From: Bdellovibrionota bacterium
GTDB lineage: Bacteria; Bdellovibrionota_C; UBA2361; JBIKWN01
Assembly: GCA_044356295.1 (NCBI GenBank)
Contig: JBIKWN010000034.1
Span: 1-25,069, forward strand
DNA: 25,069 nucleotides
Direction of reading: 5' to 3'
Every line of letters starts with the position of its first letter. The first letter of the stretch is position 1. The position numbers were made by a program, and so were the translations under genes. The notes under the pieces were generated by a model that searched no databases, was not told where the DNA came from, and saw only the letters and a list, made by a program, of their open reading frames with translations. Positions 1-18,068 of this stretch are shown piece after piece.

Positions 1-91
1 TAAAAAGTACTTACCTTTTTATAATCAAGAAAGAATTCATTCTAGTATCGGATACTTATCTCCGGTTCAATTTGAAGCCAATTTGTGTTAA
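1..91 (+). CDS. IS3-family transposase (OrfB), C-terminal fragment running in from the window edge
   Basis: Frame from base 2 reads KKYLPFYNQERIHSSIGYLSPVQFEANLC*, stop at 89-91. This matches the IS3 integrase-core C-terminal motif YNxxRxHSSLGYxSPxxFE. Too short to appear in the ORF track. Confidence 0.9.
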   Translation, partial: KKYLPFYNQERIHSSIGYLSPVQFEANLC

Positions 92-124
92 CTTTTACCT
101 GTCAACAAAAGTGGGTGAAGATCC
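1..124 (+). mobile_element. Right end of an IS3-family insertion sequence (IRR about 99-124), inserted in an attC site
   Basis: CTGTCAACAAAAGTGGGTGAAGATCC follows the transposase stop and resembles IS3-type terminal repeats, though it ends CC rather than the usual CA. It directly abuts the remaining part of an attC. Confidence 0.75.
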
Positions 125-198
125 TTTTGCACCATCCGAATTCAGTGGTTGGACTAAGATTTGTTTTGGTGCAAAACTTCTCATCGTAAACGTTATCC
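125..198 (+). repeat. attC site 1 (left part removed or separated by the IS3 insertion)
   Basis: Stem TTTTGCACCA/TGGTGCAAAA, 32-nt loop similar to the attC2 loop, then TAAAC-GTTATCC (R' core 192-198). Confidence 0.8.
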
Positions 199-540
199 CC
201 CAATAATCTCGCCAAGCCCTTCAATAACGAGATTCATTTCCTCGGGAGTTGCTTTTCCAATTTTTGCTGTGAGCCTTTCAGTCGAAAGTGTTCTTATCTG
301 GCTAATTTTAACCCACGACTTCTTAGGTAGCTTTGTAGAAGTTAATTCTAATGTTAAAGGAAATCCTGCTCTCTGAGGTTGACTTGTGAGTGCCATTGCG
401 ATGACTGTTCCTGAACGCTCATTGAAAACATCTTGGCTCAAAACAAGAACAGGACGTAGGCCAGCCTGCTCATTGCCTCGAGTTGGTTCCAGATCTGCCC
501 AAACAATATCGCCTCGAGATACTCTTAATAATCTGGCCAT
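193..540 (-). CDS. mazF: Type II toxin, PemK/MazF family endoribonuclease
   Basis: RGDIVWADLEPTRGNEQAGLRPVLVLSQDVFN and SWVKISQIRTLSTERL motifs. The stop codon lies within the cassette's first GTTATCC core. Confidence 0.93.
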   Translation of the reverse strand: MARLLRVSRGDIVWADLEPTRGNEQAGLRPVLVLSQDVFNERSGTVIAMALTSQPQRAGFPLTLELTSTKLPKKSWVKISQIRTLSTERLTAKIGKATPEEMNLVIEGLGEIIGG

Positions 541-3808: not shown

Positions 3809-5358
3809 TTTTTCTCCCAAGGCAAACCTTCATCAAGGATGACAATACGGATTATATACACTGCGACAGGTAAGCCAAGTAACAGTCCCCATGCACCAAA
3901 GAAGTGCTCACCAAGTGCAAGAATGACCAAAACAAGTACAGGATGTAAATGAAGGAAGGTGCCTACAATTTTTGGATTTAAAAGGCTTGTTTCAATAAAA
4001 TGAATTACAAGAATTCCAATGATTGCCCAAAAAGCAAGCATGAAACTTCCACCGTCTTGTATAATTGCCATAACTGCTATTGGAGCACCTGAAAGCACGA
4101 CACCAAGAACTGGAATAAAACTACTCAGAAATACAATGACAGAAAGAAATATTGTGTTTTCAATTCCAAGCATTGTTATGATTATCCAGGTAAGCAGTGC
4201 ATTAACCAGAGCGATACATCCCTGAGCTTGAAATGCACGACCAATCAAAGAAGCGAACGTATTCAAACCTGGAATAATTTCTTCATAGATATGTCCTACT
4301 CGACTTAATTTGAGACGATTGGCACCATCTCGTAATCGATCAATATCGTAGGTGATAAAAAAACTCAGCATTAAAGACAGCACCAGTTGTATAGGTAACG
4401 TGAGGAGAGCTGGAATAAGACCTGCCAGATAGTTACCAATAGCTCCAAAGAGACCAAGAACTTTTTTATCAAACTCGGTCGCTAGTTTTTCAGCCATTGG
4501 ACCTTCTTTCCATACAGAAACTAAATTATTACTTTGAAGGTATAAGAAATTAGCTTGGATAATGATCTCTTTCTCTGAAGGACTTAACGGTGACAGTACT
4601 TCTTTTTCATAAAGTTCCGAAAAAGCAATTACATCATTCAATCCAGCAGATTGATAAAGTTTTTGATACTGATTCCAGGAATATGGAGAACGATTTGTCC
4701 CATTTATTTCATGAGCGTAATACTCTTTAACAATAGCGAGATAACCGTCCTGATTGGAGTCTTTAATTCTCTTCAATAACGGAAGCTGTGCAGCAGGTTG
4801 GTCTACTGTTTTTGCTTGGCGTTTAATAAAATCACGCTCAACCTGTTGATCAACTTTCGAGCTTAGGACAGAGAAATCATCAAAAGCTTTCTGATAGATT
4901 GGTTTCTTAAGAAATTCTGAAAATGCTTGATCATATTCTGTATCACCAACAGAACCATACTGTTGTTCAAACAACCACCTTCCAACTGTTACTCGTAGAA
5001 TTGAATCAAGTGTTTTTCTTGGGCTATCCTCTAACGAGCTTACTTTTTTTATAAGTGCTTGTCCCTGTTGAACAAACTTTGGAATAAAAAATTTGCCAAG
5101 TCCATATCCAGAAAATAGTAACGTTACAAAGCAAAAAACAGTTAATGCTTTCTTTATTCTAATTGAACTTTGATTGAGGAGCTTACTACTGATAACCGAA
5201 ATGACATTACCCATGAGGTAGGCAATCAGAAATGTCATAAAGATGATAAAGAAGAAGTGACGCAGGATGTACGTTAAGATTAGGAAGACCGACCAAATAA
5301 AGAATTTACTCCAAGAAAATTTGAGTACTGTTCGGAAAAAGTTTCGTGTTTCGCCCAT
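3805..5358 (-). CDS. AI-2E family transporter (PerM/TqsA-like) with a large soluble insertion
   Basis: FLSSFIPVLG, IHFIETSLLNPKIVG, LHLHPVLVLVILALGEHFFGAWGLLLGLPVA motifs. Confidence 0.9.
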   Translation of the reverse strand: MGETRNFFRTVLKFSWSKFFIWSVFLILTYILRHFFFIIFMTFLIAYLMGNVISVISSKLLNQSSIRIKKALTVFCFVTLLFSGYGLGKFFIPKFVQQGQALIKKVSSLEDSPRKTLDSILRVTVGRWLFEQQYGSVGDTEYDQAFSEFLKKPIYQKAFDDFSVLSSKVDQQVERDFIKRQAKTVDQPAAQLPLLKRIKDSNQDGYLAIVKEYYAHEINGTNRSPYSWNQYQKLYQSAGLNDVIAFSELYEKEVLSPLSPSEKEIIIQANFLYLQSNNLVSVWKEGPMAEKLATEFDKKVLGLFGAIGNYLAGLIPALLTLPIQLVLSLMLSFFITYDIDRLRDGANRLKLSRVGHIYEEIIPGLNTFASLIGRAFQAQGCIALVNALLTWIIITMLGIENTIFLSVIVFLSSFIPVLGVVLSGAPIAVMAIIQDGGSFMLAFWAIIGILVIHFIETSLLNPKIVGTFLHLHPVLVLVILALGEHFFGAWGLLLGLPVAVYIIRIVILDEGLPWEKK

Positions 5359-5436
5359 AGTTTAAATCACCTTTTGAAGATGGTATCATCTCACCTTGGG
5401 GTTTAGCCCCAAGTCTGTTTTCGAAAGTATTATTAA

Positions 5437-7044
5437 ATGTCTTCTTATATATGGTCGTCAATCGCTGAAGCGGCAAAGCACCGCAGAACTTTTGCTATAA
5501 TTAGTCACCCTGATGCTGGAAAGACTACTCTTACAGAAAAATTGCTTCTGTATTCGGGGATGGTTCGTACTGCAGGGATGGTTCGTGGACGAAAAGGAAG
5601 CAAAGCTACGAGTTCTGACTGGATGGCAATGGAGCAAGAGCGAGGAATTTCGATTACAGCCTCTGCTATGCAATTTAACTATAAGGATACAACAATAAAT
5701 CTATTGGATACCCCAGGACACCAAGATTTTAGTGAAGATACCTATAGAACGCTGACTGCTGCGGACTGTGCCATTATGGTTATCGATGCCGCCAAAGGGG
5801 TTGAGGCCCAGACAAAGAAACTTTTTGAAGTGTGTCGATTACGTGGCATACCTGCCATGACTTTTGTAAACAAAATGGATCTACCGGCAAGGGATATTTT
5901 TGATCTTCTTTCTGAAGTTGAAAATTTACTTGGAGTAAAAGCTTCACCCTTGTATTGGCCCATTGGAAGTGGCAGAGATTTTGTCGGAGTAGTAAATCTG
6001 CAAACTAAAATTGTTTCGCTCTTCCAAAAATCTGCAGTTGGAGGTGCTGATAGAGCAATCATTGAAGAAGTCACCCTTGATAGCTTCATCAAACAAAAAT
6101 CTATTGACGAGGATCTTTTATCCCAATTACAGTTTGAACTTTCGCTTTTGGAAGAAGCTGGGAATCCTTTTGTTTATGAAGATTTTTTAGCTGGAAAAAC
6201 TTCACCAGTATTTTTTGGGTCAGCCCTTACCAATTTTGGTATTGAACCTTTTTTTGATTCTTTCGTTTCTATAGCTCCTTCTCCTCGACCTGTTATCGCA
6301 AAATCAAATACTGGTGAAGATCTTATTGTAACAAATGAAAGCGAATTTTTTAGCGGCTTTGTTTTCAAAGTTCAAGCCAATATGAACCCTAAACACCGAG
6401 ACAGTATGGCTTTTATACGGGTGTGTTCTGGTGCATTCGAAAGAGACATGATGGTGAAACATCACCGTTCTGGAAAAGATGTAAGATTGTCCCGTTCATA
6501 TGCCATGGCAGGACAAGATAGAAATACTGTTGATCTTGCATTCCCAGGTGATGTTATTGGAGTTATTAACCCAGGAGTCTTTGCAATTGGAGATACCGTT
6601 TCATCGATAGGTGGATTTCAATTTAGGGATATGCCGCAGTTTCCTCCAGAAATTATTGCACAGATTAGACCGCTTGATGTTATGAAGCGCAAAGCATTTG
6701 AAAAAGGAGTGCAGCAACTTTGTAGTGAAGGAGCAGTTCAGATGCTTCGATCATTTGATAATCCAAATGGCGCCCCCTATGTCGCAGCAGTCGGAAAATT
6801 ACAGTTTGAAGTATTACAGTATCGTATCAAAGAAGAGTACGGCGTCGACACTGCGCTTGATGTATTACCATATCGTTACAGTGCTTGGTTAATCGGAGAC
6901 CCAACAGATCTTAAGAAAACACAAAGTTCATTTCTTACACTCGATTCAAAAGATCGTGTTGTTGTCTTATTTACAGGTGAGTGGGAAAAGAATTATCTCT
7001 TGGAAAAAAATCCTGGATGCTCACTTCATGAATTTGCAAATTAA
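5437..7044 (+). CDS. prfC: Peptide chain release factor 3
   Basis: RRTFAIISHPDAGKTTLTEKLLL, SDWMAMEQERGISIT, LLDTPGHQDFSEDTYRTL, NKMD, AVGKLQFEV. Confidence 0.98.
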   Translation: MSSYIWSSIAEAAKHRRTFAIISHPDAGKTTLTEKLLLYSGMVRTAGMVRGRKGSKATSSDWMAMEQERGISITASAMQFNYKDTTINLLDTPGHQDFSEDTYRTLTAADCAIMVIDAAKGVEAQTKKLFEVCRLRGIPAMTFVNKMDLPARDIFDLLSEVENLLGVKASPLYWPIGSGRDFVGVVNLQTKIVSLFQKSAVGGADRAIIEEVTLDSFIKQKSIDEDLLSQLQFELSLLEEAGNPFVYEDFLAGKTSPVFFGSALTNFGIEPFFDSFVSIAPSPRPVIAKSNTGEDLIVTNESEFFSGFVFKVQANMNPKHRDSMAFIRVCSGAFERDMMVKHHRSGKDVRLSRSYAMAGQDRNTVDLAFPGDVIGVINPGVFAIGDTVSSIGGFQFRDMPQFPPEIIAQIRPLDVMKRKAFEKGVQQLCSEGAVQMLRSFDNPNGAPYVAAVGKLQFEVLQYRIKEEYGVDTALDVLPYRYSAWLIGDPTDLKKTQSSFLTLDSKDRVVVLFTGEWEKNYLLEKNPGCSLHEFAN

Positions 7045-7115
7045 TATATAACTCACCAATGCACTCGGCAAAACTTACCCACTAAAAATAAATTAAAAAT
7101 AATTCATTTTTACCT

Positions 7116-7142
7116 TCAGTAAAAATGAAAATGGTTCGAATA
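7116..7142 (+). promoter_or_regulatory. Possible sigma28 (FliA)-like promoter
   Basis: TCAG-N15-TTCGAATA, a loose match to TAAA-N15-GCCGATAA, upstream of flagellin. Confidence 0.3.
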
Positions 7143-7292
7143 CTATTTTTAAGAAGTAGTAGTAATTAGCGGTACGAGAAATTTTTTAAGCGGTGCATTC
7201 AGCTCTTGGCCCAAAGAGTTGTAAGCAAGTCATTAAACTGAATCACCCAAAACATTTAATAACGTAAGGTTTAGGCTGCACGTGCCCACGCG

Positions 7293-7356
7293 CAGGACGA
7301 ATTTTCGTTGGTTTCCATGGATTGGAGACTCTAAGCATTGCGTCTTTTCAAGGAGG
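7293..7356 (+). promoter_or_regulatory. GGA motifs (candidate CsrA sites) and Shine-Dalgarno in the flagellin leader
   Basis: CAGGA (7293), hairpin TCCA-TGGAT-TGGA (7314-7326) with GGA in the loop, and AAGGAGG SD (7350-7356). Confidence 0.55.
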
Positions 7357-7361
7357 AAGAG

Positions 7362-8225
7362 ATGGGTATAACAATTGGTAGTAATATTGCGTCGTTGCAA
7401 GCACAACGACAATTAGGAATCGCAAACGAACAGTTAGGTTCGGTGTATCAACAACTTAGTTCTGGTCTTCGGATCAACAAAGCAAGTGATGATGCAGCGG
7501 GTCTAGCAATCGCTGACTCATTAAAAGCTAACCAACGTGTTGCAGCAGTTGCAGTACGAAACGCAAACGACGGTATTTCTACTGTTGCTATTGCGGATGG
7601 TGCTCTTAATGAAATTGGTAACGTATTAAGCCGACTAGCAGAACTTTCTGAACAGTCAGCAAACGGTACGTTCTCAACTCAGCAACGTTCTGCACTTCAA
7701 AACGAATTCTCAGCTCTTGGATCTGAGATTGAAAGAATCGCTATCACCACAACATTTAACGGAGTGAAACTGCTTTCAGGTGGAAACTCTATTACGTTGC
7801 AGGTTGGTTTTGATTCTCAGTCTACTTCACAAATCCAAATTACAAACGTACAAGGAACTCTTACTGCGCTTGGACTTGCAGGGGCCGGGGTGTCAGCTTT
7901 GACATACTCAATCTCTGGAACTTCAATCACAGATGGTCAGTCTGCTGCACGTCTTGCGCTTGACGCGGTGAACACTGCAATCAGTTCACTTGCTCAAACT
8001 CGAGGTACTTTAGGTGCTGCAGAATCAAGACTTCGTGTATCGATCAATAACTTGAACGTTGCACGTGAGAACTTTGCAGCTGCTGAAAGCCGCATCAGAG
8101 ACGTTGATGTAGCAAGCGCAGCCGCTGACTTGACTCGACTTGGAATCTTGCAACAGGCTGGTTCATCCATCCTTGCGCAAGCGAACCAACAGCCTCAGTT
8201 GGCTCTTTCTCTTCTACGAGGATAA
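7362..8225 (+). CDS. fliC: Flagellin (short, 287 aa)
   Basis: LSSGLRINKASDDAAGLAI, NANDGIS, RGTLGA, AAESRIRDVDVA, ILAQANQQPQLALSLL. ATG 7362 follows AGGAGG. Confidence 0.97.
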   Translation: MGITIGSNIASLQAQRQLGIANEQLGSVYQQLSSGLRINKASDDAAGLAIADSLKANQRVAAVAVRNANDGISTVAIADGALNEIGNVLSRLAELSEQSANGTFSTQQRSALQNEFSALGSEIERIAITTTFNGVKLLSGGNSITLQVGFDSQSTSQIQITNVQGTLTALGLAGAGVSALTYSISGTSITDGQSAARLALDAVNTAISSLAQTRGTLGAAESRLRVSINNLNVARENFAAAESRIRDVDVASAAADLTRLGILQQAGSSILAQANQQPQLALSLLRG

Positions 8226-8408
8226 GTGTAGAGAGACTTCGCTCTGGCAGGTTTACCTCTTAAAGCCAGAGCGAATTCTTCACACGATACTTCGTCGGAG
8301 CATGGAAGCGAACATTAAGTTCGTGTTGAAGATGGCATGGTTCGGACCAGTACGTCGCGATAAGAAAAGAGGGGGTTCTAAATTTAGTACCTCGCTACTT
8401 TCTCTTGG

Positions 8409-8447
8409 GGTCTGGAAGTGTAAAAACTTCCAGGCCTTTTTCTTTTT
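8409..8447 (+). terminator. Rho-independent terminator of the flagellin transcript
   Basis: GGTCTGGAAGT-GTAAAA-ACTTCCAGGCC followed by TTTTTCTTTTT. Confidence 0.85.
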
Positions 8448-8449
8448 GA

Positions 8450-9703
8450 TTATTTACTGAGCGAATCACTCAGTGAACGCAAAACCTTCCAGTTAAAATT
8501 TGCAACGGTAGTCACTAGAGATGATTGAAGATCTAAAACATCTGTAATCGATTCTTGGAATCCATCTATTTCAAGTAAAATAACTTTCCTAATAGCCGTT
8601 ACACTAGCATCGATGATTACTCCTAAAGGATTATTCTCAAATGAACGAGCAATCAAACCAAGTGTTTGATTTTTGAGTGCATGAGAGGCAGTAACAATCA
8701 ATCGACCTTCCGATTGATTCACACCCATATTTAATAGATTTCCTAATCCTATATCTGTGGATAGGACAATTTTGGCAAAATGACTAAATCCTTTTTTTCT
8801 TACCTGTTCATTCCATTCAGCAAGAATCGACCGTATCGATTTTTTGTGGATAGCAAGATTTGGTGCTAAAAGCACGATGCATTCAAAGTCTTTGAAGTCT
8901 TGATCAATAAGACTGTGTAATTGTTCGTTCAGTTTTTCAACTGTTTCAAAATTAATAAGAACACTCATCGCATAGCTAGAATCAAAAGCAAATTCTCGGT
9001 AACGTCTATGAATTCGAGACATTTCAGGTTCTGCATATGGCATACCTTCAACCTGGTCTGATGTTTTATTTTCAGGGGTCATCCGGTAGTACGAAAGTGT
9101 CTCTTCCATTCGATGAGAAAAAGGAAATGCTTGGGCTATGCGAAGCCATAGGTCATAATCCATACAAAAGTGTAATTCCGGATCAAAGATAAGATCGTCA
9201 GTACGTCGTACTAGTTCAAGAACTTCTTTTGTAAAGAATATGGAAGGTTGTGTAGGAATTGAATAGGGAACCCAATATTTCAATAAATCGAACCAGCTTC
9301 TTTCTTTATTAATAATCTTTGTTTTTGGAGTACCAAATTCGTCCGTAAGCTCGCAGGCTCCCATGATAATGGGGTAGTCTTTAAGATTATCGGCTACTTC
9401 ACCAAAAATATGTGGAGCATAAAAATCATCACTGTTGAGCCATCCAAAAATAGTTCCTGTTGCGATCGAGAATCCTTTATTGAGTGCATCAGCTTGACCC
9501 TCATCAGGTTCAGAGATCCAAGTAACATGAGGGTACTTTTCGAGGATTTGTAACGTCTCATCAGTTGAACCCCCATCAATGACAATATGCTCAAAATCAT
9601 CATATCCCTGATTCATAACGGACTGGATACATTGTTCAAGATATTTACCCTGATTAAACGAAGGGGTGATGATCGAAATTTTTGGTAAGACTGATAAACC
9701 CAT
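8450..9703 (-). CDS. Glycosyltransferase family 2 with a degenerate second GT2-like domain
   Basis: PKISIITPSFNQG, IDGGSTD, GWLNSDD, DYDLWLR. The C-terminal part (SLIDQDFKDFECIV, NMGVNQSEG) looks like a decayed GT-A fold. Confidence 0.92.
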   Translation of the reverse strand: MGLSVLPKISIITPSFNQGKYLEQCIQSVMNQGYDDFEHIVIDGGSTDETLQILEKYPHVTWISEPDEGQADALNKGFSIATGTIFGWLNSDDFYAPHIFGEVADNLKDYPIIMGACELTDEFGTPKTKIINKERSWFDLLKYWVPYSIPTQPSIFFTKEVLELVRRTDDLIFDPELHFCMDYDLWLRIAQAFPFSHRMEETLSYYRMTPENKTSDQVEGMPYAEPEMSRIHRRYREFAFDSSYAMSVLINFETVEKLNEQLHSLIDQDFKDFECIVLLAPNLAIHKKSIRSILAEWNEQVRKKGFSHFAKIVLSTDIGLGNLLNMGVNQSEGRLIVTASHALKNQTLGLIARSFENNPLGVIIDASVTAIRKVILLEIDGFQESITDVLDLQSSLVTTVANFNWKVLRSLSDSLSK

Positions 9704-9756
9704 ATGATATTTTAGAATCGCGCTGAGGAAATATAAAAGATAAGATTATTCCCTAT

Positions 9757-10827
9757 ATGCATTCTTTTGAACCTTTTAGTCAATTTATTCAGCGAGATAA
9801 TCCTTTAGTCAGTGTTGTCGTGCCTTGTTTCAATAAGGCAAGCTATCTTGCAGAAACGATACAGAGTATTGCAATTCAAAATTATCAACCAATTGAAGTG
9901 CTTATTGTTGATGATGGAAGTACTGATGATTCCTTAAAAGTCGCCCATTCGATGAAAGATCAGCATCCTGGTCTCAATCTTGTCATTTTTTCAAAACCAA
10001 ATACTGGTATCTCTGATACTAGGAACTATGCAATAGAAAGAGCTTCGGGAAGAGTGATCCTAAATTTAGATGGCGATGATTTGCTAAAACCTAACCTCAT
10101 CTCTGAATCAATTCGTGCAATGAGGACCACAGGCGTAAACCTAGTGACATCACCCGTTGAGATGTTTGGAGGTAAAAATGAAGTTTGGAGTCCTGTAAGA
10201 TATGATCCATTCTTTCATCGGTATGATAATTTAATTACAACACTTATTGTGTTTGATAAAAAAATCTGGGAACAAGTTGGAGGATATAGTAAAGCATTTG
10301 CATTCAATGAAGATTGGAGTTTTTCTTTAGCAGCTCAAAAATTTGGCCTCAAAGTAGCTCAATTTTCTGAACCTCTCTTTCGTTACCGCGTTACCGAGGA
10401 TGGTTTAGCGAATCAATACATAAAGGATTCTGGTGGTTTAAGCCGTGCAATGGTTGCTACAGCAAATCATGAACTTTATCCTGTAAGTGAATTATTAGTC
10501 GCCCATGATCTATTGAAAATTATACCAGCGAAATGGTTGAAACGTTTTGAGCAACAAGATATTCAGCACCCGCATGAATGGCTCTTAAAGTTTTGGCTTG
10601 GTTTAGCTGCTTTAAAAACAAAAGAGTTTCAACCCGCAGCTGAGTTTTTTACTAGGTCAATTGAACTCAGTAATGCAAAAGAATGGCAGCCTCTTTTTCA
10701 ATATGCTGAATTATTCGCTTCAGAGGGAAGGAAAAAAGAGGCGAAAATGATGTATCACGAGACAAGAATTGTATGTCCAAATTTACGACCATTGATTGAG
10801 GAAAGATTTCAATCCTTTAATCTTTAG
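9757..10827 (+). CDS. Glycosyltransferase family 2 with C-terminal TPR-like helices
   Basis: PLVSVVVPCFN, VDDGSTD, LDGDD, EDWSF, then a helical TPR-like tail. Confidence 0.92.
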   Translation: MHSFEPFSQFIQRDNPLVSVVVPCFNKASYLAETIQSIAIQNYQPIEVLIVDDGSTDDSLKVAHSMKDQHPGLNLVIFSKPNTGISDTRNYAIERASGRVILNLDGDDLLKPNLISESIRAMRTTGVNLVTSPVEMFGGKNEVWSPVRYDPFFHRYDNLITTLIVFDKKIWEQVGGYSKAFAFNEDWSFSLAAQKFGLKVAQFSEPLFRYRVTEDGLANQYIKDSGGLSRAMVATANHELYPVSELLVAHDLLKIIPAKWLKRFEQQDIQHPHEWLLKFWLGLAALKTKEFQPAAEFFTRSIELSNAKEWQPLFQYAELFASEGRKKEAKMMYHETRIVCPNLRPLIEERFQSFNL

Positions 10828-11485
10828 GTGTATAGGTATCTTTCATAATTGCTTGGCTTACGCACTGACCAAGTTTATCCATGACGTAACTTGTTGGAAA
10901 TTCTGCAGGCGTTCTCCGAAGTATCCCAAGATTTGCAACAGAATTTTTATATTCTTGTCGATTTGAAATAGCTGTTGATTTACCATAATAAATAGTTGTT
11001 CCAGACTCAACATCAATTGCTTTAGCAAATGCTGTCATTGTATCAGGTGATCTCATCGGTTCAATCCAAGAAACAATGACAATATCGTATCCGGCTTCTC
11101 GAGCATATCGAATAGCCCCAAAATTACCTGTAAAAAACTCATCTTTTTTACCTGGCCATTCTTGTCGATTGAGAACTTCAACAATTGGTAACTGACCATA
11201 ATTTAAAAGATCTTGTTGTATCCGCCATGCGAGCTGATTTCCTGCGCTTGGTTGCTCAATATAGAGGCTACTCATATTTGCAGGAGCAGTTCCTGGGACA
11301 ACCCCAATTCGAACTGGTGCATTTGGAGTGTAACGTTTCGAAATAAACTCCAAGATAGGTATTTGAGTATATGCATGTGATTGGCATGACTCTTGAAACT
11401 CTTTTCCAAAGCGGGTTTCAAAAAAAGTGCAGCCAGACGGCAGTAATGTCAAAAAGATGGCTAAACAAAGATTGATTCGCTTCAT
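10817..11485 (-). CDS. Putative lipoprotein, CsgG/FlgO/LpoB-like fold
   Basis: Lipobox-like LPSGC, plus AIRYAREAGYDIVIVS and AKAIDVESGTTIY, typical of this fold. Confidence 0.6.
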   Translation of the reverse strand: MKRINLCLAIFLTLLPSGCTFFETRFGKEFQESCQSHAYTQIPILEFISKRYTPNAPVRIGVVPGTAPANMSSLYIEQPSAGNQLAWRIQQDLLNYGQLPIVEVLNRQEWPGKKDEFFTGNFGAIRYAREAGYDIVIVSWIEPMRSPDTMTAFAKAIDVESGTTIYYGKSTAISNRQEYKNSVANLGILRRTPAEFPTSYVMDKLGQCVSQAIMKDTYTPKD

Positions 11486-11555
11486 GATTGGTGCTCGTAA
11501 TTATCTGTTTTTATTACGTTTAGAGGCTCCAATCAGTCTAAAGGATTAGAAAGAT

Positions 11556-12311
11556 ATGAAACACTCAACCTCGTACGTTCAACTACTATGCCAGATATTG
11601 ATGCTGATGTGCATGGCATTTTTTGCCGGCTGTAGCGGTCGTTACAATGAAGTTCCTGCCTACGTACCATCAATTTTTAGCGATGAAGATAATGATGGAG
11701 TAGGGCGCTTTAAAACTTCTTATCTCATCGGTCAAATTGATAATCTTTATAGAGGTAGTGATCCAGGACCTATCGGTGTCACCACATTAGTTAACCTCGA
11801 TGACCTGTACTCAACATCTAGTTTTGGGCGTATGTATGCAGAGCAGTTGATGAGCGAACTAGCAATGAAAGGCTATGATGTGGTTGAACTTCGCCACTCA
11901 GATGCCCTCCAGTTTATGAATAATGCAGGTGAGTTCGGTTTATCCCGCGATACTACCGCTGTTAAAGAGGCAAGAAATCTTGGAGGAATTCTTGTTGGTA
12001 CTTACTCTGCTTCTCCTTTAAGAGTGTATGTTAACGTAAGGCTCATTGATCCTAAATCTTCTATTGTTCTTTCTGCAGGATCTGTAGAGATGTCAAAGAC
12101 CAAAGAAATTGCACGCATGATCCGAGGTGGTTCGCTTGCAAATTCAATGGAGCGGATTCCTGTTAAGCATCTTGACTATACAACCTACCCGGCAATGATG
12201 ATGCCTAACTTCATGGGTAATCGTTATGAGCAAGAAGAGGTTGGGATGATTATGCCATCCATGAGAGGGCAAGCAACAAATCCGATTCAAATAGAACCAA
12301 AGTTGAAATAG
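11556..12311 (+). CDS. flgO: FlgO-family outer membrane lipoprotein
   Basis: Lipobox FAGC, IGVTTLVNLDDL..SSFGRMYAEQL, GEFGLSRD, ILVGTYS, VNVRLID. Confidence 0.8.
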   Translation: MKHSTSYVQLLCQILMLMCMAFFAGCSGRYNEVPAYVPSIFSDEDNDGVGRFKTSYLIGQIDNLYRGSDPGPIGVTTLVNLDDLYSTSSFGRMYAEQLMSELAMKGYDVVELRHSDALQFMNNAGEFGLSRDTTAVKEARNLGGILVGTYSASPLRVYVNVRLIDPKSSIVLSAGSVEMSKTKEIARMIRGGSLANSMERIPVKHLDYTTYPAMMMPNFMGNRYEQEEVGMIMPSMRGQATNPIQIEPKLK

Positions 12312-12321
12312 TACTCTTTAT

Positions 12322-12624
12322 TTAGTTATTGAGAGAAAAAGGAAGGTCCACAGGACCTTTCTGCTTTTCAGGAGATGGGATTTCCCGTTCTTGGATCCTT
12401 TCAGGATTTGGGTGGCAAAAATCTGCCTTTGCATTATTAGGATCGTCGCAATTTATAAAAACCCCACCAAATTCCTTAATTTCAAGTCCAACAAAGCCTA
12501 AGATCGGTCGAAATGGCCCACCCAGGACAAAAGCTAACAATAACAGCAATAACAATGATATCCCGACCCAACCAATGATTTGATTGAAGAGATCCCAATT
12601 TTTATTTTGTTGTTTTTTAACCAT
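12322..12624 (-). CDS. Small single-TM hypothetical protein
   Basis: ATG start, long hydrophobic helix, two Cys in the soluble part. Fills the gap between flanking genes. Confidence 0.65.
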   Translation of the reverse strand: MVKKQQNKNWDLFNQIIGWVGISLLLLLLLAFVLGGPFRPILGFVGLEIKEFGGVFINCDDPNNAKADFCHPNPERIQEREIPSPEKQKGPVDLPFSLNN

Positions 12625-12713
12625 TCTTATTTGTGTAGAGAATCGAACAAAGTAGCTATTCCGTCAAATGGATTTTCGTTGTACTGTTTTAACCTAGTTA
12701 AAGTTAAAACAAT

Positions 12714-13394
12714 ATGTCTGAAAACCTACTAAGTACCGACCATTTTTGGATAGGCTCTGTTCCTTATTTTAATCCTTACCTCATAGTTTTTCCTCAGGAA
12801 CAGGATTTTGAGCCAAGTGAGACTCTGATTGATTTTTTTGATTGCGATGGTGAGCCATTTAATTCTGCAAAAATTATTGTCGATACTCCTAAGGTTCAGT
12901 GTATTTCCTTAGAACCATTTTTGTCTGGTTGCAAAACTGAGTCAGGAATGAAGCACTGTCATCTACGATCTACCTCATCTCTTGGTACAGAAGTTTTTTG
13001 CAGATTACATTCACATTTACAGACTACACTTCTCGGGCACGCTCAGAGTTTAAATGAGACCTTACCAGGATTTTTCCCTTTGACGTTAGAGGAAGGGGTG
13101 ACAAATTTACTTGCCATAATGAATGTTGAGGAACAAGTGGCCTCATTAAAGCTTCGGCTTTATGTCGGTAATAGGAATCCTGAAATAACGGTTTCGATTG
13201 CTCCGAACGGAAGTGCGTTAGTACATCTTGAGAATGAATTTAAAGATGTTATCGAAGCGCTGGCCCAGAAAAGTACACGTCAGTCTAGTTATCAGGGATA
13301 TGTAAGAATTCTTGCAAAATCACCACTGGCTATACAGATGCTTACAAAAGAGGTTGGACCTCAAGAGCAACCGCAGTTCAGTGCATTGGGATAG
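12714..13394 (+). CDS. Hypothetical protein (beta-rich)
   Basis: 226-aa ORF, first of four closely spaced co-directional genes. Confidence 0.8.
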   Translation: MSENLLSTDHFWIGSVPYFNPYLIVFPQEQDFEPSETLIDFFDCDGEPFNSAKIIVDTPKVQCISLEPFLSGCKTESGMKHCHLRSTSSLGTEVFCRLHSHLQTTLLGHAQSLNETLPGFFPLTLEEGVTNLLAIMNVEEQVASLKLRLYVGNRNPEITVSIAPNGSALVHLENEFKDVIEALAQKSTRQSSYQGYVRILAKSPLAIQMLTKEVGPQEQPQFSALG

Positions 13395-13412
13395 AGGAGA
13401 TAGAGATTTTAC

Positions 13413-14099
13413 ATGTATACGGTTCGTTGGTTTGGATTTGGTGTATCGCAGGCATTGACGAAGTCAGTGCTACATTTCTTTCCAACGTCATCTAATGTTT
13501 CAGCTCCTTATCCGTTGCAATGTAAAATAGAAATTTTTTCTGAAAAATTTGGAAGAAAATCTCTCATCCTTGACGGCGCAAGATTACATCAACCAGACGG
13601 TATTAAATTAGAAGCTGCTTTTCCAGTTCTTGAAGACGGTGCACATCCAATTTTTGGTGTTACGATTGAACTATCGGCTCAAGCACAACGTGTCGATATT
13701 AGAGCGTCACAGGTGTATATGGAGGTGATTAACGCAGGGAGTCGTGTACGTTTTAGAATGAAACAATCAGAAAATATAGCAACTCGATCAAGTACACCGT
13801 TACTGTTTAAGGATGAGAATTGTTACACAAGTCTTGCTGTCGTCAATGGTAGTGTGGATCAAATAACGGTGGATGGTCTTTCTGATATACCGAAACCTAT
13901 TCCTGGTGAGTCAGTTGTAGAAGTTGAACCAAGCGATAACTTTTATGAAGGTGGTGTGAGCTTTGAAACCGACAGAACTACGTCGCTTTTTCGTGGAATC
14001 GCAGCTCATGCGTTTACGCACCCAGATAGGGCGCTGTTTGTTATTCAGCGAGACCAAGAATCTAAGAAAATTCAAAGTATTTATTCAGTAGGAGTCTAA
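13413..14099 (+). CDS. Hypothetical protein (beta-rich, possible distant paralog of the upstream gene)
   Basis: 228-aa ORF with GAGGA upstream. TSLAVVNGS resembles NLLAIMNVE of the upstream gene. Confidence 0.8.
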   Translation: MYTVRWFGFGVSQALTKSVLHFFPTSSNVSAPYPLQCKIEIFSEKFGRKSLILDGARLHQPDGIKLEAAFPVLEDGAHPIFGVTIELSAQAQRVDIRASQVYMEVINAGSRVRFRMKQSENIATRSSTPLLFKDENCYTSLAVVNGSVDQITVDGLSDIPKPIPGESVVEVEPSDNFYEGGVSFETDRTTSLFRGIAAHAFTHPDRALFVIQRDQESKKIQSIYSVGV

Positions 14100-14103
14100 G
14101 TAT

Positions 14104-14925
14104 ATGTCAGTACCATCAATACTTTTTTGCCCTCCAACATATCAGCATAATGTTGAAGTGAGCCTTCTTGCACTGCTTGGACGGTTTTTAAATCAGCATG
14201 CCATAGTCAAACAACTTCGTTGTAATGGAGTCATGCTTCATTGCGATCGAGATGTCACAACTTCATTTCATCGAAGTTTTGAAAGTTGCTTACAGTGTAT
14301 GTCAGAAACAACTTTTTTCTCACAGTGGTCAGGCGCATTGCTTGAACAATTATCTAAATATATTCCTTCCTCTGATATTGAGCGAACAAAACGTTGGATG
14401 ACAACATTGGAAACTGCTGACTTGGAACATGCCGTATTTGACGGTATTTCACCTTTTGATTGGTGTATAGAACTTTTTCAAAAACGATTTCAACAACGTC
14501 AGTTTAACCCTGAAAATAAGCAACACGAAGTATTTATGCGCCGCTATATGTTGTCGGTCATTCGAACACGACTTGGGGTGCGTCGTTTTTTATTTTCGCA
14601 TAAACCAGAAACTATTTTCGTTATTGATACTCAAGAAATTTTTTCTCGTGCTGTTATTGAAAGCGCACAAGATATTGGATTGAATCTTATAAAAATTAAA
14701 ATGAACAGGGATGAGCGCTCCATACAAGTTGAGTGTTGGGAATCAAGAGAGACATTAATGATAGATGTTCTTATACAAGATTTTTCTCAGGTTCGTACTG
14801 ATATCGAAAAATGGCCTGAAGAGCTTAAAGATCAGTTGCGATCGTTAGCTGTATTTTCGGGAATGAAGTTGCCTAATATGCAACATACTATACATGCTGG
14901 TGGAAGAGTTGTTCATGGAAGATAG
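14104..14925 (+). CDS. Hypothetical protein with 4-Cys motif, resembling the N-lobe of capsule-biosynthesis/GT-B proteins
   Basis: C-x6-C-x14-CxxC near the N-terminus and a PETIFVI...RAVIESAQDIGL segment. Function uncertain. Confidence 0.6.
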   Translation: MSVPSILFCPPTYQHNVEVSLLALLGRFLNQHAIVKQLRCNGVMLHCDRDVTTSFHRSFESCLQCMSETTFFSQWSGALLEQLSKYIPSSDIERTKRWMTTLETADLEHAVFDGISPFDWCIELFQKRFQQRQFNPENKQHEVFMRRYMLSVIRTRLGVRRFLFSHKPETIFVIDTQEIFSRAVIESAQDIGLNLIKIKMNRDERSIQVECWESRETLMIDVLIQDFSQVRTDIEKWPEELKDQLRSLAVFSGMKLPNMQHTIHAGGRVVHGR

Positions 14926-15484
14926 TTCTGTTCCCTCAAAAGAGATTCTTCCAAATACAGATCAGTGGATCTGGGGAAGAGAAGTATTAATCTGGGGACA
15001 TGATCTGTCACATCAATATACTTGCAAAGTTCTGCGTCCAAAGGTTGGAAGACTGGGAATGTTAAGCCTTCAGTATCATCATGAAAAAAGTGAAAGTTGG
15101 ATTCAGTTGTCTGGTAAAAGCTGGGCACTTGTTATTTCTAATGGCAAAGTTTGTACCCGAATTCTAAATCCCGGTGATGTGCAAAATATTGAGTTAGGAA
15201 TGATTCACCGATTAATGGGATTAACAGAAGATTGTCAAATTCTTGAACCGTCAACTCCGGATAGACATGCTGCTGATAAGTCCGTCCCTAAGGATGTTGT
15301 CCGCCTTCATTGTGTCTTAGGTAGAGACGTTTCGAATGCTCGTAACGATTCTGAAGCCAGGCTCGTTGATGAAGCAATTAGAATTTCACATGAAGCGTTG
15401 AATGCAATTGATGCTGGTGGAATACCAGAAGAAATCAATGTATCTGAACTATTGGGGAAGACCGGATTCCGATTGGCCCTTTAG
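14915..15484 (+). CDS. Cupin-domain protein (type II mannose-6-phosphate isomerase-like)
   Basis: WGRE, LSLQYHHEKSESW, GMIHRL, ILEPSTP motifs. ATG 14915 overlaps the upstream gene end. Confidence 0.8.
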   Translation: MEDSSVPSKEILPNTDQWIWGREVLIWGHDLSHQYTCKVLRPKVGRLGMLSLQYHHEKSESWIQLSGKSWALVISNGKVCTRILNPGDVQNIELGMIHRLMGLTEDCQILEPSTPDRHAADKSVPKDVVRLHCVLGRDVSNARNDSEARLVDEAIRISHEALNAIDAGGIPEEINVSELLGKTGFRLAL

Positions 15485-16076
15485 CAGTACAGCTATCTCG
15501 GACTGGACATTTCATGCATTTGTTTGGATGAGGCGTTGCTTTTATTGGATGATTTTCCTCAAGAAAATTGCGCATATCTTTTAAAATACCACTAAGCCAA
15601 AGTTGTTTTTCTTCTGTATTCTCAATTTTGATGCGCTTTGACTGTTTGCCAAGAATTAAATATCCATACGGTGGACGTTTTCCTTCATGGGCTTCAATGA
15701 GCCTCATGTAGACGAGTAGTTGGGCAATTTGTCTTTCATGAATTTTTTTCTGTAATGGTTTTTGTTCTACTGGAATGAAAAAACCATTTTCTTCGATTAC
15801 GGCATCTGGTCGTCCGGCGATTCCTAATTCATCGTTTATATATTCTTTTGTTTTAACGGAACGCCCACCATCGACACCAATTGTTCGCGCACGTTTAGCA
15901 ATACCTGCATTTTTTTTTAGTTTGGTAATCGAGAGCAGTACACCATCAACAACAATTACAGTAATAGAAAGTAAAATTACAAAAATAATACTGTCTGTAT
16001 CAAGCTTAGCAAGATCTTGAAATAGAAATTTTATGGACTGAAAAAAATGATGAAGTTCATCCTTTAGTAGGTACAT
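15435..16076 (-). CDS. Cas4-like PD-(D/E)xK nuclease, N-terminal TM, lacking the first Fe-S cysteine
   Basis: GIAGRPDAV, IPVEQK, QLLVY, YGYL and C-terminal KCMKCPVRDSC. TM SIIFVILLSITVIVVDGVLLSI. Confidence 0.88.
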   Translation of the reverse strand: MYLLKDELHHFFQSIKFLFQDLAKLDTDSIIFVILLSITVIVVDGVLLSITKLKKNAGIAKRARTIGVDGGRSVKTKEYINDELGIAGRPDAVIEENGFFIPVEQKPLQKKIHERQIAQLLVYMRLIEAHEGKRPPYGYLILGKQSKRIKIENTEEKQLWLSGILKDMRNFLEENHPIKATPHPNKCMKCPVRDSCTAKGPIGIRSSPIVQIH

Positions 16077-16330
16077 ACGATTACTACCGTTGTAATAAGA
16101 AGAGCAACTAAAAATCGCAACCCTTCTCCAAGATGTGCAGCTTGATCAAGGTTTGATGACCATTCGTGGTGAAGCGTTTTTCCTGTTTTTCGATCTGAGG
16201 ATTCTTTAGCAGTTATGGATTCTTTCGAATTAGTTTGGTGGCGCAGTCTCCAACTTTCTTGGCAGTATACAAATTGACCAACTTCTCCAGCGGAGATTAT
16301 AAATTTTCCAGTGTTATTTCTTCTTGCCAT
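16064..16330 (-). CDS. Small protein carrying the Cas4 N-terminal segment, with C-terminal TM
   Basis: IISAGEVGQFVYCQESWRL corresponds to the Cas4 'isas.v..y.YCpR..w' segment and GKTLH to 'G..lH'. Hydrophobic C-terminus. GGAG SD before ATG 16330. Confidence 0.8.
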   Translation of the reverse strand: MARRNNTGKFIISAGEVGQFVYCQESWRLRHQTNSKESITAKESSDRKTGKTLHHEWSSNLDQAAHLGEGLRFLVALLITTVVIVCTY

Positions 16331-16416
16331 CAATTACTCCTGTAGCTTCCACACATGTTATTTGAGTAAACGACAAAAAGTGACTGAAAATGTAGCACTT
16401 TTTCTTATATTTTTTA

Positions 16417-16908
16417 TTATTCTTTATTAAGAAGTGTTTTTAGCCAGCTAACAACACTTGATTTTTCAGTTGTAACCTCTGGAAATTGCTCTGGAATTTC
16501 AAAAATTGCTGTTTTCTTTTTCTTATCGAGGTCGGGTGCAGATAGTATTCTAGAGTATAGCGATTCTGCATTGGGAATATGAGCAGTTTCGATACCATAT
16601 TGCGCTTCGGGTGCTTGATTATTGGTTAGCCTCCAGAAGGCATATCGACCACACGCAGTAGTAAAAAAACACTCTATTTTAAACTCAGAGGATGCTATCG
16701 ACCCTGTAGAGGTAATATTGAAATCATGTCCATTATCAAGTAAAAAAGTATGTTCTAGTGTATCAATCCAGACTTTTTTGGCTCTGTATGCTGAAATTTC
16801 GTCTGAATAAAGCCCCTCTAGACTGGCTGTTTGAGGGTCAAATGAGACATGGTTGAGTAAGGCAATTTCTTTAGTAAGTTCTACTACTCTTTCCTCGGCA
16901 ATGCTCAT
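16417..16908 (-). CDS. Hypothetical protein
   Basis: 163-aa ORF with ATG and an AAGGAAG-like SD, co-directional with the Cas4-like pair. Confidence 0.8.
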   Translation of the reverse strand: MSIAEERVVELTKEIALLNHVSFDPQTASLEGLYSDEISAYRAKKVWIDTLEHTFLLDNGHDFNITSTGSIASSEFKIECFFTTACGRYAFWRLTNNQAPEAQYGIETAHIPNAESLYSRILSAPDLDKKKKTAIFEIPEQFPEVTTEKSSVVSWLKTLLNKE

Positions 16909-17153
16909 ACTACTACTTCCTTACACCTTTTACTTCTTTTTGCTTCCAGTAGATAAGACATCGGACTTTTAGTGAGAGGACTTTAATAAAAGTAGGCAAA
17001 ATACTAGAAATTAGCAGAGCTTAGTTACTTGTGGATTTAAGTAAAAGTATTAGCAAAATTCAAAAATAATCGAGTTTTTTGAGGAAATTGATCTCTTTTT
17101 AACCCACATGTCTGCTAGGTAAGGTTCTTTAAGGCATGCTAAGGATCAGATAG

Positions 17154-17183
17154 TGGCAAATTTAGAGATTTTTTGTCTATAAT
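17154..17183 (+). promoter_or_regulatory. Sigma70-type promoter
   Basis: TGGCAA-N18-TATAAT, with a perfect -10 at 17178-17183. Confidence 0.5.
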
Positions 17184-17197
17184 GAGCATTCTTTCGA

Positions 17198-17299
17198 CAG
17201 AGGGGTACTCGCCCGTAGGATTATTGTTTTGCCAGACTGTGAAGTCTGCTCGATGGTTCTAAAAAAAGTTGCCAAGGTTTATTTCTGGCAACCCCTTTG
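17198..17299 (+). ncRNA. Candidate structured 5' leader RNA
   Basis: Basal stem CAGAGGGG/CCCCTTTG enclosing CAGACT-GTGA-AGTCTG (GNRA loop) and GTTGCCA/TGGCAAC hairpins. Confidence 0.45.
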
Positions 17300-17345
17300 A
17301 CACTGAGACACTAACAACCTTAAACAATTAAAAGGTATCAAATAT

Positions 17346-18068
17346 ATGAGAAATGGAAGAAACGATAATCGTGGCGGCGGCAGACGTGGCGGCGGTGGAA
17401 ATGGTGGACGTCGTGGAGGAGGCGGTCGACATGGTGGTGGACGAAGACATCATAGAAATCCTCGTATGGCAGCAGAGGGTGGTAACAAAAGAGAAAGAAT
17501 TGCAGTAGAAAGCGGTTACCTTGTTCTTATAGATCAATTCATGCTGGCTAATCCTCAGTTCATGGAGCGTATTGCCGCTGTAGTTGATGAAGATCCAGAT
17601 GCAAAAGATGCAATCGTAGCTGATTTTGGTGGAACTGTTATCGATGTTGAACCAGGTACGTACCGTATCGAACGCGATCCTTTTCAATATATCGTTGTGA
17701 TTCATCCTGAAGATGCTGAAGGAATTAATCCAAAAGAACTTCGTGTAAATGCAACACAAAGTCGCGGTGATGTTTTTGTTGATACACGATGCCTAGCAAT
17801 GATCGATCGTGAACTTCTTGACGATAATGATCTGCTTCAAAAATACCAACAGCTTTGGTTTAGTGGTCAAGATAAAGCTTGCCGAGATCTTTTAAGAGAT
17901 AACGGTGGAGCTGTTCGATATGGATTCCAAAGATACGGCGATGAATTACAAGTATATTCAGTACCTGGTCAAGATATCGTATGTCTGTGGCCAAATCCTG
18001 CAACAATGCCAGAGCAGCCGGCTGAAGGAAGCGATGCAGAGGCAGTTGCAGAAGGAGCTGCTGCTTAG
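17346..18068 (+). CDS. Hypothetical protein: RGG-rich N-tail, two internal repeats, acidic C-tail
   Basis: RGGGRRGGGGNGGRRGGGGRHGGGRRHH tail; repeats VESGYLVLID and VDTRCLAMID. Confidence 0.85.
   Translation: MRNGRNDNRGGGRRGGGGNGGRRGGGGRHGGGRRHHRNPRMAAEGGNKRERIAVESGYLVLIDQFMLANPQFMERIAAVVDEDPDAKDAIVADFGGTVIDVEPGTYRIERDPFQYIVVIHPEDAEGINPKELRVNATQSRGDVFVDTRCLAMIDRELLDDNDLLQKYQQLWFSGQDKACRDLLRDNGGAVRYGFQRYGDELQVYSVPGQDIVCLWPNPATMPEQPAEGSDAEAVAEGAAA

Follow-up and report, generated by a model that had tools for sequence, protein, structure and literature searches.

The gene pair and its two subunits

The window analyzed here is the whole of a 25,069-nucleotide (nt) contig (JBIKWN010000034.1, assembly GCA_044356295.1) from a Bdellovibrionota bacterium; this entire 25-kb contig belongs to a 2.96-Mb genome that is 93.6% complete. 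On its minus strand lie two overlapping open reading frames (ORFs) of 88 and 213 amino acids (aa), which jointly hold all elements of the nuclease Cas4, usually one polypeptide. The features of the pair, with transmembrane (TM) helices and ligands as predicted, are as follows.

16067..16330, minus strand: small subunit gene, 88 aa, stop codon at 16064-16066; Cas4 N-terminal module and C-terminal transmembrane anchor
15438..16076, minus strand: large subunit gene, 213 aa, stop codon at 15435-15437; acidic N-terminal tail, TM helix 2, nuclease core and three cysteines
16064..16076, minus strand: overlap of the small-subunit stop and the large-subunit start, 13 nt, ATGTACCTACTAA
16338..16342, minus strand: AGGAG ribosome-binding site, 7 nt 5' of the ATG at 16330, as read from the sequence
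16262..16264, minus strand: codon of Cys23, predicted first [4Fe-4S] ligand, aligned with the invariant cysteine of canonical Cas4
16169..16171, minus strand: codon of His54 (in GKTLH), predicted catalytic-metal ligand and equivalent of SSO0001 His62, aligned with the G.QLH of canonical Cas4
16073..16123, minus strand: TM helix 1, small-subunit residues 70-86, followed by 2 residues (tail anchor)
15921..15989, minus strand: TM helix 2, large-subunit residues about 30-52, followed by KLKK
15486..15887, minus strand: PD-(D/E)XK nuclease core, residues 64-197 with D91, E104, K106, Q119 and Y123; Pfam matches
15489..15518, minus strand: three predicted C-terminal [4Fe-4S] ligands, C187-x2-C190-x5-C196, invariant in 76/76 family members

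The small ORF extends over 16064..16333 and would encode 89 aa from a TTG start, or 88 aa from the ATG at 16330; the latter is almost certainly the start, since AGGAG lies 7 nt upstream from it and the homologs all begin with MARR or MPRK. Relative to the small ORF, the large one is shifted into the -1 frame, and the 13-nt overlap of the two cistrons suggests translational coupling. The same geometry, with a -13 overlap, recurs in a relative of about 80% identity (locus L001).

All of the motifs quoted in a sequence-only reading of this DNA, which had proposed a Cas4-like nuclease split into two membrane-anchored polypeptides, were found in the two ORFs. The small ORF carries SAGEVGQFVYC (with Cys23), GKTLH (with His54) and a C-terminal hydrophobic stretch at residues 70-86; the large ORF carries a hydrophobic stretch at residues 30-48 ahead of KLKK, GRPD (D91), VEQK (E104, K106), QLLVY (Q119, Y123) and C187-x2-C190-x5-C196. 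That reading placed a transmembrane helix followed by KLKK at the very start of the large ORF; the helix and the KLKK are there, but 29 mostly acidic residues precede them.

The large ORF is recognized by family models, scoring 44.2 bits against Pfam PF01930 (Cas_Cas4; curated cut-off, 22.7) and 68.7 bits against NCBIfam TIGR00372 (cas4; cut-off, 65); the Cas4 and DruK models of PADLOC also match it, which we take as fold similarity only. Because the match to Cas_Cas4 covers profile positions 31-159 of 160, what the large ORF misses is the N-terminal 30 positions. It is the sole PF01930 match in the source genome. A search with it returned 136 homologs; among the 120 listed, 119 were of 192-230 aa and one (P0117, 285 aa) was fused. 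D91, E104, K106, Q119, Y123, C187, C190 and C196 are invariant among 24 large subunits.

A search with the small ORF returned nine homologs of 84-89 aa. Across 39 small subunits, C23, W27, L29 and W57 never vary, and conservation reaches at least 90% at G50 and H54; Cys23 is kept in 39/39, as well as in all 20 additional modules inspected, and His54 in 37/39. When the small-subunit profile was compared by hhalign with one built from five canonical Cas4 sequences of related genomes, the two aligned with an E value of 5.4e-5 and a probability of 66.6%, cysteine on cysteine and G..LH on G..LH; a motif alignment of the small ORF to 8D3L gave a weak match. Both ORFs therefore bear out the earlier assignment to Cas4, the large one by passing curated cut-offs and the small one by profile alignment. 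In SSO0001 (4IC1), His62 ligates the catalytic metal together with Asp99, residue 113 and Lys115, according to PMC13621843. By this likeness, the small subunit probably contributes one ligand to the cluster and another to the metal.

Hydropathy supports one transmembrane helix in each polypeptide. TM helix 1 has a mean Kyte-Doolittle value of 2.46 over 17 residues (family median, 2.71), and in the family a median of 3 and a maximum of 9 residues follow it; the mean for TM helix 2 is 2.95. In the large subunits, lysines plus arginines average 0.83 before the helix and 4.21 after it, and are higher after it in 24/24 sequences. These values predict that the small subunit is tail anchored, with its N-terminal module in the cytoplasm, and that the large subunit has its short acidic tail outside and its nuclease core in the cytoplasm. 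As a prediction, then, the proposed topology of single membrane helices with cytoplasmic soluble parts is borne out. It equals the hairpin topology predicted for fused forms of the protein (see below) and would be compatible with Fe-S assembly in the cytoplasm.

A near-universal family in interchangeable fused and split forms

Hidden Markov models of both parts were used to compare 61 related loci, taken from genomes that represent their species and that nearly all carry the label Bdellovibrionota, Bdellovibrionales or Oligoflexia. A small module lies directly 5' of the large part on the same strand in 61/61; the two-gene arrangement, whose occurrence in other genomes the sequence-only reading had named as a check, is present in 38 of these loci, and the other 23 have one open frame of 275-371 codons. 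One such natural fused ortholog (L052, 285 aa) was modeled by AlphaFold2 (AF2) from an alignment of 69 rows comprising fused, large-only and small-only sequences, giving a mean predicted local distance difference test score (pLDDT) of 91.8 and a predicted template modeling score (pTM) of 0.87. The model matches Cas4 structures over nearly its whole length: 7MI5_A with Z 17.7, root mean square deviation 3.4 and 187 residues aligned (model 7..281 on chain 6..208), and 8D3L_J with Z 16.4 and 196/217 residues aligned (model 6..285 on chain 4..215). A further best Cas4 match, among PDB entries 8D3L, 7MI4 and 7MI5, has Z 16.8, and 4IC1_D has Z 12.1; Foldseek returned Dna2 (E 3e-8), Cas4, AdnAB, ACE1 and SSO0001. 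As L052 superposes on Cas4 end to end, the N-terminal module and the core together make up a complete Cas4. Two long helices of the model (DSSP 41-84 and 103-131) form an insertion of about 90 residues, a helical hairpin, and the break between the window's two genes maps to the loop between them.

From this superposition we infer that the four cysteines of the window's pair would converge and that the histidine would join the active site. The sequence-only reading had proposed a cluster assembled in trans from two proteins; the division of the four cysteines, one plus three, between the subunits stands, as does their invariance, and assembly in trans is what the model would imply.

Residue counts over 76 family members (74 of them distinct) point in the same direction. 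D91 is kept in 75/76, E104 in 66 (with Asp in 9 more), K106 in 70, Q119 in 67, Y123 in 66 and the three C-terminal cysteines in 76/76; together with the cysteine of the small module, all four cluster cysteines are invariant in the family. The histidine of the small module is replaced in the pair L040/L053 and, by Arg or Lys, in a deep clade (G003-G006, G011, G020, G022a and G028-G031), with the cysteine kept in all. Where the large part of a His-replaced member was available, it also deviated in ExK or QxxxY (12/12), and the sole deviant among His-keeping members is L013 (Y to H). This covariation, which amounts to about two independent events, is suggestive of one active site shared by both parts. 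To judge by these counts, the most conserved feature of the family is the predicted cluster and not catalysis; the window protein keeps each catalytic residue.

Within the deep branch of the family (L073-L076, L083 and L084, from G003, G004, G005, G022a, G028 and G011), V, H, Q or R stands in place of the Lys of ExK while all four cysteines are kept, and G028 additionally lacks the Asp. From their residues, these members may be catalytically inactive membrane Fe-S proteins.

We searched 124 genomes from the phylum of the window, each sharing at least its class, with the small-module profile; the module is present in 109/124 genomes and in 67/73 of the high-quality ones, in single copy everywhere except in G022. 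By hand count, 52 of the open frames are short (86-151 codons) and 57 are long (265-371 codons). Among 20 places checked, 13 genomes are split with a large ORF directly 3', and 5 places are fused, including the fused copy of G022, which contributes one fused and one split place; in G020 the sequence stops at the contig end. The two copies in G022 (L076 and L077) are one fused copy and one very divergent split copy on a long branch. Canonical full-length Cas4, recognized as matching the Pfam profile from position 3 or 6 on, is present in only 6/124 genomes. Beyond the phylum set, the profile matched 511 proteins at E <=0.001 and 109 at E <=1e-10 among 1.84 billion cluster representatives; among the 150 matches listed, 29 are of at least 195 aa, a ratio that is biased because the profile was built from split forms.

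Fused and split states have changed into one another repeatedly. A tree of 57 large domains, built without the partial rows L055, L056, L059, L060 and L061, places 21 fused rows in one clade (support of 100 in the SH-like approximate likelihood ratio test) and needs a minimum of 2 state changes. Adding 19 rows raises the count to 6 changes on the best tree, and at least 2 changes are forced by well-supported branches; in this larger tree, two long branches come together and two of the rows stem from genomes that were already represented. The trees have no outgroup and give no direction as to whether fused or split is ancestral. Close relatives group together in the protein tree.

The window has no tandem repeat array and no Cas family elsewhere among the ORFs scanned, which confirms that neither a CRISPR array nor cas1 or cas2 accompanies the pair there, and no cas cluster was found among the conserved neighbors in 62 loci. 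The only Cas1 of the genome lies on another contig (C100, L085) in a type I-E operon of Cas3, Cse1, Cse2, Cas7, Cas5, Cas6e, Cas1 and Cas2; this complete type I-E locus, the genome's only CRISPR system, spans 2827-6455 and 6963-15533 and has a long array of 29-nt repeats with a 61-nt period. Type I-E systems are not known to use Cas4. Our results thus show a family that is near-universal, single-copy and CRISPR independent, in interchangeable fused and split forms. By its position outside cas loci and its apparently mainly vertical inheritance, it classes with the solo-Cas4 proteins.

A probable membrane nuclease in two pieces and the alternatives

Our combined results make it probable, with some room left for other readings, that the pair is the two-gene form of a solo PD-(D/E)XK nuclease of the Cas4 family, which is membrane anchored, independent of CRISPR and equipped with a predicted [4Fe-4S] cluster, and which reassembles in trans. 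The architecture of the family would be a transmembrane hairpin inserted between the N-terminal module, with the first cysteine and the metal-binding histidine, and the nuclease core. In this lineage the gene appears to have been broken in the outward-facing loop of the hairpin, so that the 88-aa product is a tail-anchored N-terminal module; the 213-aa product would have a short acidic tail outside, one transmembrane helix and a cytoplasmic core. The two helices would pair in the inner membrane and the cytoplasmic parts would rebuild one Cas4 fold, with the iron-sulfur cluster (one plus three cysteines) spanning the subunit interface. The catalytic metal site probably spans it as well, combining the histidine of the small subunit with the Asp, Glu and Lys of the large one. 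Such a heterodimer would be constitutive and equivalent to the fused orthologs, and would cut DNA in a metal-dependent way on the cytoplasmic side of the inner membrane. Its role may be a housekeeping one, for example DNA end processing or clearance at the membrane, and not CRISPR adaptation.

Several points weigh against this interpretation. The small ORF alone has no match in Pfam, NCBIfam or PADLOC, its profile has none against PDB sequences, and the hhalign probability relating it to Cas4 is only 66.6%. The transmembrane helices and topology are predicted from hydrophobicity and charge counts only, and the convergence of the cysteines and the histidine is deduced from the superposition of a fused ortholog. 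Replacement of the catalytic Lys in 6/76 members, with all cysteines kept, leaves room for a role other than that of a nuclease. The large subunit might also cut DNA without the small one, by analogy with the Methanosarcina mazei solo-Cas4, in which, according to PMC12501428, mutation of any cluster cysteine abolished cluster binding and nuclease activity stayed. Finally, the gene context offers no functional clue.

The best-surviving alternative is that the split is itself functional, the nuclease being turned on only when its two membrane proteins meet, as a defense against incoming DNA or as a sensor of membrane stress; the sequence-only reading had entertained just such a regulatory or membrane-sensing switch. 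Both subunits are membrane anchored, the cluster and probably the metal site are shared out between them, and the PADLOC Cas4 and DruK models match the large ORF, if by fold similarity only. However, sister lineages have fused orthologs with the same hairpin, and within a single family of single-copy orthologs the state has changed at least 2 times, with 6 changes on the best tree, so that a fused enzyme does the same job without any meeting of subunits. Since the fused orthologs do without dimerization and the overlapping cistrons imply co-synthesis, a dimerization switch is not supported, and the pattern of fission and fusion is more in keeping with a loop that tolerates a break than with a switch. 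Likewise, near-universal vertical distribution and an ordinary chromosomal context are unlike those of accessory defense genes, and the near-universal, single-copy, chromosomal distribution fits housekeeping better than defense against incoming DNA. We regard a functional split as unlikely.

Slightly less probable still, in our judgment, is that the conserved role of the family is not DNA cutting and that these are membrane-bound [4Fe-4S] proteins that bind DNA or sense redox state or iron, with nuclease activity secondary. All four cysteines are invariant (the C-terminal three in 76/76) while the catalytic Lys is replaced in 6/76, the histidine has become Arg or Lys in the deep clade, and G028 is without the Asp. 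The order-level group of the window protein, however, keeps D, ExK and QxxxY (24 large subunits) and the histidine (37/39 small subunits), and such retention would be expected only if catalysis is under selection here.

Two further alternatives would do away with the two-protein arrangement itself. In the first, programmed -1 ribosomal frameshifting, or stop read-through, would fuse both ORFs into one protein; the large ORF does overlap the small one in the -1 frame, and elsewhere fused forms do function. Nevertheless, no X XXY YYZ slippery heptamer occurs within the overlap ATCGTATGTACCTACTAA, and 5' of the domain the large ORF has a single candidate start, an ATG of its own. Counting the window, there are 39 split loci, whose two cistrons stand in frame relation 0 in 8 cases, +1 in 9 and +2 in 22, and the junctions comprise 14 overlaps (-13 twice, -11 twice, -4 eight times as ATGA or GTGA, and -1 twice), one abutting pair and 24 gaps of 2-43 nt; these single junction values are approximate, as the large-subunit start was set automatically to the start codon nearest the stop. 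In some relatives an in-frame stop is followed by a fresh ATG. Relatives in all three frames and with gaps up to 43 nt fit no single mechanism, and recoding at this junction is very improbable.

The least probable of the alternatives, to which we give next to no weight, is a sequencing or assembly frameshift or a recent pseudogene, one gene broken by a 1-nt indel at 16064-16076, for which the overlap of two ORFs in different frames and the fused orthologs of 275-371 codons might speak, and which is contradicted by the 38/61 split loci with their three frame relations, in-frame stops with new ATGs and ATGA overlaps, by the identical -13 overlap in L001, by selection on both halves and by independent sequence. 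When the window is compared with L001, the ratio of nonsynonymous to synonymous substitution rates (dN/dS) comes to 0.107 (small ORF) and 0.083 (large ORF), rough values since dS is near saturation, which places both halves at about 0.1. A contig from a lake-water metagenome (run X2), of another sample and study than the possible source, spans 15991-16141 with 0 differences and 0 gaps, and among the contigs of four public lake-water metagenome runs compared with 15400-16400 none was listed with an indel; two of these runs (X3 and X4) cover the junction only partly and were left out of the junction evidence. Identical proteins are on record from 2-3 contigs. The artifact of which the sequence-only reading had warned, recognizable by one continuous ORF in reads or homologs, is therefore not what the varied frames and spacing of the split loci and the indel-free independent contig reveal; taken with the new ATGs that come after in-frame stops, the varied frames rule out a sequencing error as well as any single mechanism of programmed frameshifting. 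The gene pair is a genuine two-cistron arrangement that is conserved and under selection.

Neighboring genes, known relatives and significance

Two genes upstream from the pair recur next to it in related genomes.

16417..16908, minus strand: upstream gene for a 163-aa protein, adjacent to the pair in 53/62 loci
17346-18068, plus strand: divergent gene for a 240-aa protein, syntenic in 47/62 loci

The 163-aa protein has no Pfam, NCBIfam or PADLOC match, and its AF2 model (pLDDT 80.7) gave a best Foldseek PDB match of E 0.032 and a best VIA Z of 6.5, within noise. It contains an invariant motif around RYAFWR..N.QAPE.QY.IETAHIP. It is present in 122/124 genomes of the phylum and in 73/73 high-quality ones, occurs also in a family without the Cas4 module, and looks like a lineage-wide core protein. 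In distant genomes its gene lies far from the Cas4 gene (2.8 Mb apart in G011). As the 163-aa protein is near-universal by itself and unlinked in distant genomes, the linkage seen here is order-level synteny and poor evidence of shared function; a functional three-gene operon, which was considered, was dropped on the grounds of this phylum-wide presence and lack of linkage.

The 240-aa protein has an Arg/Gly-rich N-terminal region with RGG repeats and a very highly conserved C-terminal domain. It has no match in Pfam, NCBIfam or PADLOC, and only weak structural neighbors in the Atlas, at a TM-score of about 0.48 (Imm21, Imm33, DUF4241 and SMI1/KNR4). At its 3' end, the large-subunit gene overlaps a convergent 196-aa ORF (14894-15484) by 50 nt (15435-15484); this ORF has a weak match to a cupin or mannose-6-phosphate isomerase C-terminal domain (E 1.4e-4, below the Pfam cut-off). 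A scan of 15200-17500 for promoters and terminators gave nothing above shuffled expectation. The other genes of the window are ordinary chromosomal ones, encoding RF3, an AI-2E transporter, flagellin, GT2 glycosyltransferases, FlgO, an MFS transporter, DUF1501/DUF1800 proteins and DoxX. Near the contig end, 193-540 on the minus strand encodes the toxin domain of a MazF/PemK-like type II toxin-antitoxin system (PF02452, E 2.9e-31).

The pair belongs to the Cas4 family in its sequence, motifs and fold, and it departs from that family in being membrane anchored, split and unlinked to CRISPR. One close likeness is to the solo-Cas4 proteins (Hudaiberdiev et al. 2017, PMC5704561; M. mazei solo-Cas4, PMC12501428), with which it shares the Cas4 sequence family, the four-cysteine motif, the absence of linkage to cas1/cas2 and a mainly vertical, single-copy inheritance. 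Those described there are single soluble polypeptides, whereas the window's pair has a transmembrane hairpin after the N-terminal module and is encoded by two genes. The words "transmembrane," "Bdellovibrio" and "split" are absent from the main text of PMC5704561, the supplementary trees lying outside that search, and literature searches listed no description of a membrane-anchored or split Cas4. More generally, Cas4 is usually one soluble polypeptide of about 160-220 aa, as against the two polypeptides here, each with a predicted transmembrane helix.

With the Cas4 proteins of CRISPR adaptation in types I-C and I-G (8D3L, 7MI4 and 7MI5) and with SSO0001 (4IC1), the pair shares the catalytic and cluster motifs and a fold that, in the model of the fused ortholog, aligns from the N-terminal module to the C-terminal cysteines; unlike the adaptation proteins, it is membrane anchored and split and has no Cas1/Cas2 partner or array nearby. 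The iron-staple domains of AddB, AdnAB, Dna2 and Exo5 have the same fold class and the arrangement of one N-terminal and three C-terminal cysteines (Foldseek E 3e-8 for Dna2; VIA Z 12-13.5). These, however, are domains of large soluble helicase-nuclease machines, whereas the pair is without a helicase and its sequence is closer to Cas4.

A practical matter for genome annotation is that no family model at present recognizes the 88-aa partner; its gene is therefore annotated as "hypothetical," and the large subunit, under the label "Cas4" or "Dna2/Cas4 domain protein," seems N-terminally truncated. A bolder version of our interpretation, which we hold only tentatively and at somewhat less than even chances, is that the pair forms an obligate heterodimeric Cas4, with the cluster and the metal site lying across two membrane-anchored polypeptides; that it belongs to the core, single-copy gene set of a whole lineage within the Bdellovibrionota and handles DNA on the cytoplasmic side of the inner membrane; and that the transmembrane hairpin is a point of repeated fission and fusion.

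Nucleases of the Cas4 family outside CRISPR systems are widespread and their roles are largely unknown; the pair described here adds a tethered and naturally split variant. Its near-universal, single-copy presence in a phylum-level group points to a conserved, unstudied task for a nuclease at the membrane. The repeated switching between one gene and two constitutes a natural experiment on the fission of an Fe-S enzyme and offers a ready-made split-protein pair. If the bolder version is true, a heterodimeric Cas4 would belong to a broad and as yet undescribed class of membrane-embedded Cas4 nucleases.

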